DNA from: Candidatus Micrarchaeota archaeon
Lineage (GTDB): Archaea; Iainarchaeota; Iainarchaeia; JAADDC01
Assembly: GCA_027046625.1 (NCBI GenBank)
Contig: JALTXX010000006.1
Location: 1 to 56,740 of the forward strand
Length of the DNA: 56,740 bases
Direction: 5' to 3'
The position numbers were made by a program, and so were the translations under genes. Shown one piece after another: positions 27,872-47,739 of the stretch. Each line of letters begins with the position of its first letter. The first letter of the stretch is position 1. The notes under the pieces are model-generated. The model was given only the letters and a program-made list of their open reading frames with translations, ran no database searches and had not been told where the DNA came from.

Positions 27872-28349
27872 GGTATTAGACAATAGGGTGTTGGTAGAGG
27901 AGGGATATGAACATTTAAAAGAGAAGGGCTTTGGGGAGGAAAGGGAGGAAGGACTTGTATTATCCCTCTATGAAGCCTTTTATCTTCTACAAAAGGGAAA
28001 ACTGGTGCTTGATATGGGTGAGGAAGCATTTTTACGCCATGCTTCTTCTGTAGAGGAACAATTTCTTGCAAGATATGCTGTATTCAAGGATATAAGGGAC
28101 AGAGGATATGTTGTGAGGACAGGTTTTAAGTTTGGGACACATTTTAGGGTGTATCCTAGGGGGAAGAAACCAGGGGAGGCTCATACTCAGTATGTGGTCT
28201 ATGTATTGAGTGAGGAGCAGCGGTTTGAACCGGCAGACATTGCACGTCTTGTGAGGGTAGCTACTGGTATAAGAACAAAGCTACTGTTTGCCATGGTGGA
28301 CAGCGAGAACGATGTGGTATATTATAAAATAGAAAGGGTAGGGCTTTAG
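27846..28349 (+). CDS. endA: tRNA-splicing endonuclease
   Basis: YEAFYLLQKGKL, then RDRGYVVRTGFKFGTHFRVYPRG...HTQYVV, match the EndA catalytic domain. Confidence 0.85.
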   Translation: MVPMPTRGKVLDNRVLVEEGYEHLKEKGFGEEREEGLVLSLYEAFYLLQKGKLVLDMGEEAFLRHASSVEEQFLARYAVFKDIRDRGYVVRTGFKFGTHFRVYPRGKKPGEAHTQYVVYVLSEEQRFEPADIARLVRVATGIRTKLLFAMVDSENDVVYYKIERVGL

Positions 28350-34838: not shown

Positions 34839-34898
34839 GTGTGTGATGAGCCCGCGCAGGGCTGAGGCAACGATGATGACGATCTTGAGTGCTGATTA
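34839..34898 (+). ncRNA. C/D box sRNA 1 (2'-O-methylation guide)
   Basis: C GUGAUGA (34843-49), 12 nt, D' CUGA (34862-65), C' AUGAUGA (34873-79), 12 nt, D CUGA (34892-95). TATA-like TTTAAAAG at 34816-23. Confidence 0.85.
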
Positions 34899-34922
34899 AA
34901 AATTCTAAGTTTCCTATTCTAT

Positions 34923-34980
34923 GGGCAATGATGAAGCCGTCCCAGACTGACGGTGATGATAAGGGGTAACTGCTGAGCCT
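34923..34980 (+). ncRNA. C/D box sRNA 2 (2'-O-methylation guide)
   Basis: C AUGAUGA (34928-34), 12 nt, D' CUGA (34947-50), C' GUGAUGA (34953-59), 13 nt, D CUGA (34973-76). Terminal GGC/GCC pairing. TATA-like TTAAAAAT at 34896-903. Confidence 0.8.
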
Positions 34981-45916: not shown

Positions 45917-46978
45917 TTAAAAGTGATCTCTTAGGAGGATAGTAGCCAAGGCAGGAAGTGAGAATATAGCGATTCCTTGATAACCTATGTTTTCTACCAA
46001 TATACCTGCTAAAGTAGACCCGAGAAGTATGGACAGTCCTAGAGATAGCTGTACAATCCCTATGTTTAAACCAATATGGTCCATTACCCTATCTCCCACC
46101 CTTGCAAAAATAGTAGGAAGTACAATACCAAAGGCTGCTCCATAGAGGAGGAATGCCAAAGAAAGGAGGAGCGTGTTGTTCACCCATATGAGGAGATGGG
46201 AAAGCGCTATCAATACCATTCCGCACAACAGGAGAGTTCTCCTTCCTATGGCATCACTCCTTGTGGATATAAGAAGGGCTGAGGCTGCATAAACTATGTT
46301 AAACCCCGCATAGGGGATGAGGGCTGAAGTTCCGGTTATTTCTGCAGCCCTTTCTATGTATATGGCAGGAGAAATAAGGGATAAACCCACCAGAGCAGGC
46401 ACCAAAGAGAGAGACAACTTAAATTTGATGCCCTTCTCCCTTTTATGTTCTCCTACCCTAAGAAATACGAGAGGTACAAGGGTAAGGAAACCAATACCAG
46501 CAAGAATAAAGAGAGACATTTTTATAGGAAAAGTGCTTATCAAAAAATACGCTAGTATTACCCCTATAATAGCTCCTGTGGTGTCCATAGCCCTATGAAG
46601 ACCAAAAGCCCAACCCCTTTTCTCATACTCGGTAAGGATAACATCTCTTGGTGTATCCCTTATACCCTTTCCTATCCTATCTAATGCCACAAAGAGGGGA
46701 ATGAAGGACTTTTCTACTGCGGAGATAAATAACTTTGAAATGGCTGAAAGAAGGTACCCTCCTACCACAAAACCCTTTATCTTGCCAGTAACGTCGCTGA
46801 TATAGCCTGATATGGGCTTTATTATATATGCTAAACCGTTGAACAGTCCTCCCACAAACCCTACCAATATAGGATCCTTTAGATAGAGAGGTAGAATGGC
46901 GTATATACCTTCACTTGAAACATCGTTTAGAAGGGATGCAACACCTAACTTGTATACCTCTCTCTTCTCAACCTTCAT
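45917..46978 (-). CDS. MFS transporter
   Basis: About 11-12 TM segments. Start moved to M43 (ATG 46978) because the longer ORF runs into the structured RNA. Confidence 0.7.
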   Translation of the reverse strand: MKVEKREVYKLGVASLLNDVSSEGIYAILPLYLKDPILVGFVGGLFNGLAYIIKPISGYISDVTGKIKGFVVGGYLLSAISKLFISAVEKSFIPLFVALDRIGKGIRDTPRDVILTEYEKRGWAFGLHRAMDTTGAIIGVILAYFLISTFPIKMSLFILAGIGFLTLVPLVFLRVGEHKREKGIKFKLSLSLVPALVGLSLISPAIYIERAAEITGTSALIPYAGFNIVYAASALLISTRSDAIGRRTLLLCGMVLIALSHLLIWVNNTLLLSLAFLLYGAAFGIVLPTIFARVGDRVMDHIGLNIGIVQLSLGLSILLGSTLAGILVENIGYQGIAIFSLPALATILLRDHF

Positions 46979-46985
46979 GAATAGG

Positions 46986-47316
46986 AAAAAGTTGGTCTGG
47001 GCCCGGAGGAGAGGTTCCCCCCACTCCGTATCCGAGCAACGGTCCGACGCCTTTATTACCTCCTCCTTCGGGGTTAGATGCCTGCCCGGCGCAAGGACAG
47101 GCACATCCCCGATAGAGGAGGTTGCGCCCGTCGGACCTTCGGCCCTATACGGAGGCAGGGTTACCCCTCGACCCTTGGAGGGTCCCCGTTGCTTCGGAGC
47201 CGATTGAGAGCTTGTTTATTTTTCTCCCAGATGCTCTCAATCGGCCTCTGGGCCTCGGGGTTTATCCTCCAGGGCCACCGCCTCTTAGGCGGCCATCCGG
47301 TTTGCCCCCAACCACC
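46986..47316 (-). ncRNA. Unclassified structured RNA of about 330 nt, GC-rich. RNase P RNA and SRP RNA are the expected housekeeping RNAs of this size, but neither could be confirmed.
   Basis: GC-rich island between two minus-strand genes. TATA TTTATATA (plus 47337-44) lies about 24 nt upstream of the 5' end on the minus strand, and a T5 run (46986-90) marks the 3' end. End-to-end pairing GUUGGGGGC/GCCC-AGA-CCAAC and GGCCCUGGAGGA/UCCUCCGGGCC. Several hairpins, including a GUAA tetraloop. Confidence 0.7.
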
Positions 47317-47336
47317 TTTTCTAATAGCATAAGTGA

Positions 47337-47344
47337 TATATAAA
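47337..47344 (-). promoter_or_regulatory. TATA box for the structured RNA
   Basis: The minus strand reads aaaggTTTATATAtc, about 24 nt upstream of GGUGGUUGGGGG. Confidence 0.55.
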
Positions 47345-47361
47345 CCTTTCGGTTTGGTATG

Positions 47362-47739
47362 CTATGTGTTACCACTTTCCAGTAATTGGCTCCTATCTGC
47401 ATAGTTCACTGTGTACTTTGCTGGTTTTAGAGAGGAAAGAATGTATTCCCATGCCTTCCAGGGATCTGTATGTTCTCCGCACGTGTATATATCCACCGTG
47501 GCATACCTGTACTCCTTCCACGTATGAACTGCCAGATGGCTTTCTTCTACTAGTATGATGGCAGATACACCACCCTTTTCTCCTGGGATAAACCAGGATT
47601 TAGATTCTATAGGAGTAGCATTGGCCCTTTTAGCTGCTTCAAGTAGGAGAGATTCTAACCACTCTTTATCTGTGTAGGCTCGCTCCTCTCCTAGATTATA
47701 GAGGCTGCCAAACACGTGCTTTCCTATAATGGCGTCCAT
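47362..47739 (-). CDS. speH: S-adenosylmethionine decarboxylase proenzyme (pyruvoyl type, archaeal/bacterial class 1)
   Basis: GKHVFGSLY..., self-cleavage region VEESHLAVHTW, and DIYTCG. Confidence 0.85.
   Translation of the reverse strand: MDAIIGKHVFGSLYNLGEERAYTDKEWLESLLLEAAKRANATPIESKSWFIPGEKGGVSAIILVEESHLAVHTWKEYRYATVDIYTCGEHTDPWKAWEYILSSLKPAKYTVNYADRSQLLESGNT

Follow-up and report, generated by a model that had tools for sequence, protein, structure and literature searches.

Bulge-helix-bulge (BHB) motifs are the defined substrate of the archaeal splicing endonuclease, EndA, and the RNA released from them can be circularized by the ligase RtcB (PMC4731332). In Thermoproteus, the leader and trailer of a permuted signal recognition particle (SRP) RNA form such a motif, which is cut by the tRNA-splicing endonuclease before the RNA is circularized, with RtcB as the proposed ligase, and circularization is needed for the functional fold of that RNA (PMC4731332). 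Apart from this RNA, EndA is known to act on tRNA introns, rRNA precursors, a single intron-bearing mRNA, and a single 5' untranslated region (PMC7714728). Here, we describe an RNA gene at positions 46986 to 47316 (minus strand) of a 56,740-nucleotide (nt) stretch of DNA, positions 1 to 56,740 of contig JALTXX010000006.1 of a Candidatus Micrarchaeota archaeon (assembly GCA_027046625.1), which is referred to below as the window. We consider it very likely that this gene encodes a genuine novel structured noncoding RNA (ncRNA). With rather less confidence, we favor its being a stand-alone, previously undescribed, pseudoknotted ncRNA gene for which maturation by EndA and RtcB can be inferred.

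The closest precedent is the Thermoproteus permuted SRP RNA, likewise the product of a stand-alone ncRNA gene rather than an intron, with a BHB formed from leader and trailer. It is, however, a recognizable SRP RNA, whereas the RNA described here matches no family, is not detectably permuted, and occurs beside a normal SRP RNA, and its processing is a prediction. The processing stems of archaeal 16S and 23S rRNAs and circular pre-rRNAs are also comparable, sharing the BHB geometry, the expected enzymes, and the character of a long, GC-rich, stable RNA; the present RNA differs in its predicted length of ~305 nt, in having its own promoter, and in matching no rRNA model.

The predicted primary transcript of 331 nt forms a GC island (G+C content of 63%, compared with 44% genome-wide), and the assembly, which comprises 18 contigs and 652 kb and is 94% complete, contains GC islands longer than 200 nt only here and at the genes for 16S rRNA, 23S rRNA, SRP RNA, and RNase P RNA. 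The minimum free energy (MFE) of the RNA is -193.3 kcal/mol, compared with -136.0 +/- 4.7 kcal/mol for 100 dinucleotide shuffles (z = -12.2). A promoter can be read at 47337 to 47353 (minus strand, as are all features of the RNA gene), consisting of a motif resembling the transcription factor B recognition element (BRE), CCGAAAGG (47345 to 47353), and the TATA box TTTATATA (47337 to 47344); it lies ~21 to 24 nt upstream of 47316, and its start directly follows the stop codon that ends the S-adenosylmethionine decarboxylase gene upstream. A BRE/TATA element of the type CGAAA-N-TTTAWATA is found at an equal upstream distance in six of six copies of the gene, i.e., in the window and in the five homologs introduced below. 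At the 3' end, a T5 run (46986 to 46990), likely an archaeal terminator, stops 8 nt short of the start codon (ATG) of an MFS transporter gene; it recurs in one homolog (G003), and a clean T run is absent from the remaining homologs. The coordinates, strand, and boundaries given to the RNA in the initial annotation were right. No reading frame stays open in all of the homologs, nor are the predicted circle lengths divisible by three. Because the promoter is kept in all six copies while the neighboring genes vary and no frame is conserved, the locus is a resident, independently transcribed noncoding gene, neither a leader nor a mobile cassette. It is a promoter-bounded, GC-rich RNA gene, a real feature and not a product of chance.

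Five related hydrothermal-vent metagenome-assembled genomes contain homologs with 67 to 74% identity, as detected with BLAST and with a covariance model (R1) built from the 5' half of the RNA; of these homologs, three are complete, one is ended by a contig edge, one is split over two contigs, and each genome carries a single copy. RNAalifold, applied to the four complete sequences, predicted 93 pairs, 34 of them with compensatory changes. In a curated set of 68 pairs, comprising the helices that align well by column and the pseudoknots, 96.7% of the cells are canonical and 23 pairs have changed on both sides. When the 3' partner was slid by 1 to 3 columns, the corresponding values were 34 to 57% and 2 to 4 pairs, and shuffling of partners among sequences gave 9.5 +/- 2.2 both-side-changed pairs, with 0 of 1,000 shuffles reaching the observed number; given how few the sequences are and that they are related, these figures serve as indications rather than as formal probabilities.

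The fold supported by the alignment is a four-way junction of helices P2, P3, P4, and P8 with almost no unpaired bases, from which two long arms emerge that are tied together by one well-supported pseudoknot (PK1) and a second, weaker one (PK2). P2 is formed by CCGGR/YCCGG, and the P3 hairpin (47277 to 47293) varies from 4 to 13 bp among homologs. The 5' arm (47170 to 47276) consists of P4 (47264 to 47276 with 47170 to 47183; GGCCCUGGAGGAU with ACCCUCCAAGGGUC) and P5 (47256 to 47260 with 47184 to 47188), both of which show compensatory changes, and encloses the P7 arm (47199 to 47245), where a lower stem of 12 to 14 bp is followed by an internal loop carrying the sequence UCUGGG (47226 to 47231), invariant in all six copies. 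The 3' arm (47009 to 47169) begins with P8 (47158 to 47169 with 47009 to 47019), formed by GRGGGGU/ACCUCYC plus CCC/GGG and including a column pair (178/340) at which three sequences have A-U and two have G-C, and continues with P9 (47147 to 47154 with 47024 to 47031), in which three pairs covary. It then leads into a distal arm, P10 to P12 (47041 to 47137), ending in a hexaloop, NGCGCC (loop region 47088 to 47094). In four homologs, this distal arm has lengths of 97, 98, 94, and 96 nt even though most of its sequence differs; its CGCCGGG segment is invariant. Both the P7 lower stem and the distal arm keep their lengths where the sequences are not conserved.

PK1 joins CCGAAGCAA (47189 to 47197) to UUGCUCGG (47032 to 47039), the 3' side of the internal loop between P9 and P10 thereby pairing with CCGnnGCAAC of the other arm; column pair 153/315 occurs as three pair types (A-U, C-G, and U-A), and 154/314 changes from G-C to C-G. 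For PK2, the candidate strands are GGCCC (47250 to 47254) and GGGCC (47141 to 47145), the latter on the 5' side of the same loop. A single compensatory change, C-G to U-A in G003, speaks weakly for this pairing, and a small local hairpin is the alternative. Much of this architecture had been anticipated in the initial annotation: the pairing of the 5' and 3' ends, the CCGCC hairpin (P3), the helices CUCCGUAU/AUACGGAG (P9) and GGUCCGACG/CGUCGGACC (P10), and the long-range pseudoknot CCGAAGCAAC/GUUGCUCGG (PK1) are all borne out by covariation, although the processing site within the end pairing had been missed. Other helices were revised: (i) the pairing of GGCCCUGGAGGA with a 3' UCCUCCGGGCC leaves six broken cells, and GGCCCUGGAGGA pairs instead with ACCCUCCAAGGGUC; (ii) the GACCC-UCCAA-GGGUC hairpin was removed, its bases forming the 3' strand of P4; and (iii) the presumed GNRA hairpin, AGGG-GUAA-CCCU, is more likely the 5' strand of the long-range helix with ACCUCYC, given the covariation at 178/340.

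Read from sequence and alignment, the terminal pairing is a canonical hBHBh' motif. Its 5' strand (47296 to 47312) runs from an outer helix, GUUGG (47308 to 47312), through GGGC (47304 to 47307) and the bulge AAA (47301 to 47303) into P2, CCGGA (47296 to 47300), and its 3' strand (46991 to 47007) runs from P2, UCCGG (47003 to 47007), through GCCC (46999 to 47002) and the bulge AGA (46996 to 46998) into the outer CCAAC (46991 to 46995). The central helix (GGGC/GCCC) is exactly 4 bp long, and the two bulges, of 3 nt each, lie on opposite strands, each 3' of its own central-helix strand. Central helix and bulges are invariant wherever they are assembled, the helix being available with both strands in five homologs, save for a single wobble, C-G to U-G, in G003. 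Covariation is seen in the outer helix, of 4 to 6 bp, and the inner helix, P2, of 5 bp, shows an A-U to G-C change at column pair 21/343. Unconstrained MFE folding recovers the motif in the window, and G004 yields it in the same register; in G002 and G003, the register had to be set by hand. The same genome provides a direct comparison, since its 16S (C3:37328-38828) and 23S (C11:18340-22052) rRNA genes, which lie on different contigs, each have a long BHB processing stem: the 16S stem (h-GAGC-AAA-h' / h'-GCUC-CAA-h) and the 23S stem (h-GGUC-UAA-h' / h'-GACC-UAA-h) are identical to the motif described here in geometry and strand order. The terminal helices of the SRP and RNase P RNAs encoded by this genome, in contrast, are plain.

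The enzymes for such processing are encoded in the genome. The catalytic domain of EndA lies in the window (28062 to 28322, plus strand; PF01974, 101 bits) within an intact frame of 172 amino acids, and since it is the only PF01974 match in the genome, either the enzyme is a homotetramer or a very divergent structural subunit exists. RtcB is encoded on contig C11 (PF01139, 598 bits). A tRNA-Trp(CCA) gene (C4:47024-47155, minus strand) carries a 59-nt intron at the canonical position 37/38, and the 23S gene (L036:1501-5213) is ~735 nt longer than the model owing to a low-GC insertion at about L036:3560-4200, which contains a LAGLIDADG homing-endonuclease open reading frame (ORF) of 178 amino acids (L036:3626-4162; PF00961, 63 bits) and is probably an archaeal rRNA intron, located immediately 5' of the conserved sequence CUUAAGGUAGCG. 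Together, the intron-bearing tRNA-Trp and the LAGLIDADG-bearing 23S insertion indicate that the splicing pathway is in use. On another contig, ARAGORN called a tRNA-Ile(UAU) with a 661-nt "intron," which is probably an artifact.

In the maturation that we propose, EndA, acting in trans, would cut in both bulges and RtcB would join the ends held together by P2, giving a circle of ~305 nt. The excised RNA would span 46997 to 47301, the exact ends depending on where the bulges are cut, and at the junction ...CCGGGCCCAG would be joined directly to ACCGGAUGG.... The predicted circles of the four complete copies measure 305, 305, 316, and 313 nt. We regard cleavage of the RNA at the BHB as probable, and we see the chances for and against a circular end product as evenly balanced; such a form would resist exonucleases at high temperature. 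Circular MFE folding returned the same architecture in all four copies, with GCCCAG plus A as an unpaired 7-nt loop capping P2. The CCCAGA segment of the 3' strand of the BHB is invariant and exactly complementary to the invariant UCUGGG of P7. In the precursor, the CCC of this loop would be held in the central helix of the BHB, and processing would set CCCAGA free; the GCCCAGA loop could then dock on UCUGGG, locking a compact fold. The helix lengths fit such a fold-back, with P4 plus P5 leading ~18 bp outward, the lower stem of P7 ~13 bp back, and P2 contributing 5 bp. This modeled docking contact is a possibility that we hold to be somewhat improbable.

Taken as a whole, the proposal would define a new class of archaeal RNA, an EndA/RtcB circle whose processing unmasks a docking contact and so gates a ribonucleoprotein (RNP) core or ribozyme, in a lineage of hyperthermophilic DPANN symbionts; we put it forward tentatively, as falling a little short of an even chance. 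Several considerations weigh against the favored reading, including its inferred maturation: (i) the transcript ends, the cleavage, and the circle are read out of sequence; (ii) the covariation comes from four complete and two partial copies of one family; (iii) the UCUGGG/CCCAGA pairing joins two invariant segments and so lies beyond the reach of covariation; (iv) the outer helix of the BHB in G003 is only ~3 bp; (v) the RNA is present in only one of eight genomes of the sister genus, which argues against an essential housekeeping role; and (vi) no linked protein gene points to a partner or function. The alternative that survives best, although we think it unlikely, is a novel structured ncRNA in linear form, with tertiary (A-minor) or protein contacts, and not endonuclease sites, at the AAA and AGA bulges. 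All of the structural evidence fits a linear RNA equally well, invariant A-rich bulges are common tertiary elements, the circle is a prediction, and the SRP and RNase P RNAs of the genome end in plain helices. On the other hand, the motif satisfies every geometric rule of a canonical BHB and mirrors the organism's own rRNA stems, and, as EndA acts on structure, an accessible site in a terminal stem is expected to be cut.

The RNA is narrowly distributed. The relatives that carry it are titled Candidatus Micrarchaeota or Iainarchaeum (NCBI) and include four of the five other species-level genomes of the genus as well as the one sister-genus genome mentioned above. The remaining genome of the genus likewise shows no match to a neighbor of the RNA, the gene for a synthetase of the tryptophanyl-/tyrosyl-tRNA synthetase (TrpRS/TyrRS) family, and the locus is therefore probably unassembled there. 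A search with R1 of ~150 class-level and ~150 phylum-level genomes yielded no copy beyond the known six, nor did R1 without strict filters on ten other genomes of the family and order yield a further one. A pattern scan for 3' motifs over 185,579 species genomes returned the same relatives and one chance match in a Rhodothermales genome, a two-motif scan of JGI metagenome contigs returned one known copy and three chance matches inside coding sequence, and the RNA was not found among viral contigs or in a phage collection. Two assemblies break inside the gene: the contig of G006 stops just after the first bases of P9 (L005/L031:1-185), and in G001 the gene is split within the distal arm (L006:1494-1710 and L009:1-35), which may reflect strain-level variation or coverage trouble in a GC-rich stretch.

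The neighborhood of the gene is only partly conserved. Upstream, across genomes, lies speH or a gene for glutamate dehydrogenase, an M32 peptidase, or peroxiredoxin; downstream lies the MFS gene, the TrpRS/TyrRS-family gene, or apparently convergent genes. Partial synteny is seen in that speH is upstream in two genomes, glutamate dehydrogenase is upstream in two, and the synthetase gene is downstream in two. No fixed protein partner emerged, as the neighbors differ and the small ORFs of unknown function nearby are unrelated to one another. Among genomes that lack the RNA, the site upstream of the synthetase gene has no GC island in G012. In G007, of the sister genus, the SRP RNA forms a GC island (C13, L038:350-640) ~850 nt upstream of that gene, in a region roughly equivalent to where the new RNA lies in the window and in G003.

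This patchiness, with one of eight sister-genus genomes carrying the RNA and with differing upstream neighbors, would suit what we regard as the main functional rival, namely that the RNA is a free-standing, domesticated or selfish intron-like element, bounded by a BHB, derived from an rRNA or tRNA intron, and of little or no function. Archaeal introns are bounded by BHBs and form stable circles, and the organism's own 23S gene holds an insertion of ~735 nt with a LAGLIDADG ORF. The stable circular rRNA and tRNA introns of archaea are, moreover, structured and excised as circles, as is predicted for the present RNA, which differs from them in having its own promoter, conserved in six copies, and in lacking a host gene and a homing-endonuclease ORF, or any ORF at all. 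Its "exons" amount to a leader of 13 to 15 nt and a short trailer, flanked by unrelated protein genes, and their ligation would produce a meaningless RNA of ~25 nt. In addition, the RNA is single copy in each genome, shows no resemblance to the 23S insertion, and was not found in the viral and phage collections. The partial synteny favors a gene that is resident in a genome undergoing rearrangement, and ~100 base pairs are under strong purifying selection. We consider an intron-like origin of this kind improbable.

Far less plausible is an unusually large H/ACA-like guide RNA, whose pseudouridylation pocket would be formed by the internal loop (9+9 nt) that separates P9 from P10. The loop is of pocket size and lies between two stems, and the single H/ACA small RNA (sRNA) of Nanoarchaeum equitans also adjoins a tyrosyl-tRNA synthetase gene (PMC3491384). 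Sequence and alignment, however, reveal no ACA or ANA box ~14 nt 3' of the pocket, no kink-turn or kink-loop was seen in the upper stem, no Rfam H/ACA model matches in the region, and the strands of the pocket are taken up by intramolecular pseudoknots, in a topology that is the reverse of that of an H/ACA-substrate complex. Elsewhere in the genome, GC-rich islands of 110 to 160 nt (C2:18158-18279, C3:42791-42946, C3:43901-44012, C11:38209-38349, C13:11724-11836, C16:31179-31309, and C18:1087-1233) are unexplained by tRNA, rRNA, SRP RNA, or RNase P RNA and could be H/ACA sRNAs, other small RNAs, or GC-rich coding stretches.

The initial annotation had left the choice between a very divergent RNase P or SRP RNA and a novel RNA, proposing that an Rfam scan and a search for the two known RNAs elsewhere in the genome would separate them. 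With all 4,227 Rfam families at gathering thresholds, cmscan of the window found four tRNAs and no match to the RNA, and a permissive scan of 46800 to 47500 at an E value of ≤10 gave two junk microRNA matches only (E values of 1.5 and 1.8). Both known RNAs are encoded on other contigs, so that the present RNA is neither: a canonical SRP RNA (C4:20284-20556, 104.6 bits) with the helix-8 motif GGCCAGGCCCGAAAGGGAGCAACC, and a canonical archaeal RNase P RNA (C3:22945-23176, 128.9 bits) with conserved region I (CR-I) visible as GAGGAAGGUCC together with ACAGAAGG..GGCCUA. The first branch of that choice is refuted, and the second is supported by this outcome and by covarying homologs.

A very divergent or permuted form of either RNA would agree with a length of ~300 nt, a closing terminal helix, and a pseudoknot, and the Thermoproteus SRP RNA shows that a permuted molecule can be restored by circularization at a BHB (PMC4731332). 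The archaeal RNase P RNA (RF00373, clan CL00002) is indeed alike in size, in its closing 5'/3' helix, and in the long-range pseudoknots that tie its domains. Nonetheless, the present RNA has no covariance-model match to this family even at an E value of ≤10, and neither CR-I GAGGAAAGUCC nor CR-V ACAGAA..GGCUUA, which form the P4 pseudoknot, was seen on reading its sequence; the true RNase P RNA lies on contig C3. It likewise has no match to the archaeal SRP RNA model (RF01857), and the helix-8 motif GGCC..GNAR..GGGAGCAAC was not seen in its sequence. A permuted gene should yield a partial local match, and none to either clan appeared at an E value of ≤10, in a genome nearly complete and already holding canonical copies of both, so that we regard this explanation as highly improbable. 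A detached rRNA fragment was also rejected, since the 16S and 23S models are matched over their whole length by the respective genes, a 5S gene is present, and the region contains no large- or small-subunit rRNA match. Equally implausible is that the RNA acts in cis on the MFS transporter gene, as a leader or attenuator. The T5 run does end 8 nt ahead of the ATG of that gene, yet the downstream gene varies among genomes and appears from the sequence to be convergent in G002 and G004, and the RNA is itself preceded by a promoter and closed by a BHB stem. In the literature that was searched, on BHB motifs in DPANN archaea and on ncRNAs of unknown function, no description of such an RNA was found. 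It appears to match no known RNA family, an RNA without detectable relative whose putative maturation route is of a known kind.

As to function, our best guess, which we offer as a tentative one, is a very stable, exonuclease-resistant, protein-binding architectural RNA, i.e., an RNP core in a hyperthermophilic symbiont, possibly dimeric. Nearly all of the conserved nucleotides are used intramolecularly, the exceptions being the junction, a UAAC linker, and the NGCGCC hexaloop, the GCGC core of which is self-complementary in three of four copies. A ribozyme seems to us improbable. Complementarity to 23S rRNA is limited to matches of 9 to 10 nt, about what chance would give. The window also contains two tandem C/D box sRNAs (34839 to 34980), whose guides contain CCCAGA and GGGGUAAC; a link of the new RNA to these guides was considered and dismissed, the shared short words being judged chance. 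An exact complement of either guide was found nowhere in the assembled genome; either pairing with their targets involves mismatches, or the targets are located outside the assembled sequence.

Long, folded, covarying, pseudoknotted RNAs of narrow or lineage-specific distribution exist in bacteria and phages, among them OLE, ROOL, GOLLD, and the raiA motif. To our knowledge, none of these has a known catalytic role and none is processed at a BHB; the RNA described here is archaeal and has no sequence or model similarity to them, their families being represented in Rfam. Apart from rRNA, RNase P RNA, and SRP RNA, very few RNAs that are large and structured are known from archaea. That a reduced genome of 652 kb has kept ~100 conserved base pairs and a promoter speaks for a genuine function. 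Should the BHB be used, only one other stand-alone ncRNA gene, that of the Thermoproteus SRP RNA, would be known to be matured by tRNA-splicing enzymes, and the present RNA would be the first such ncRNA with a previously unknown fold; it would both widen the known substrate range of EndA and RtcB and provide a natural, very heat-stable circular RNA scaffold.

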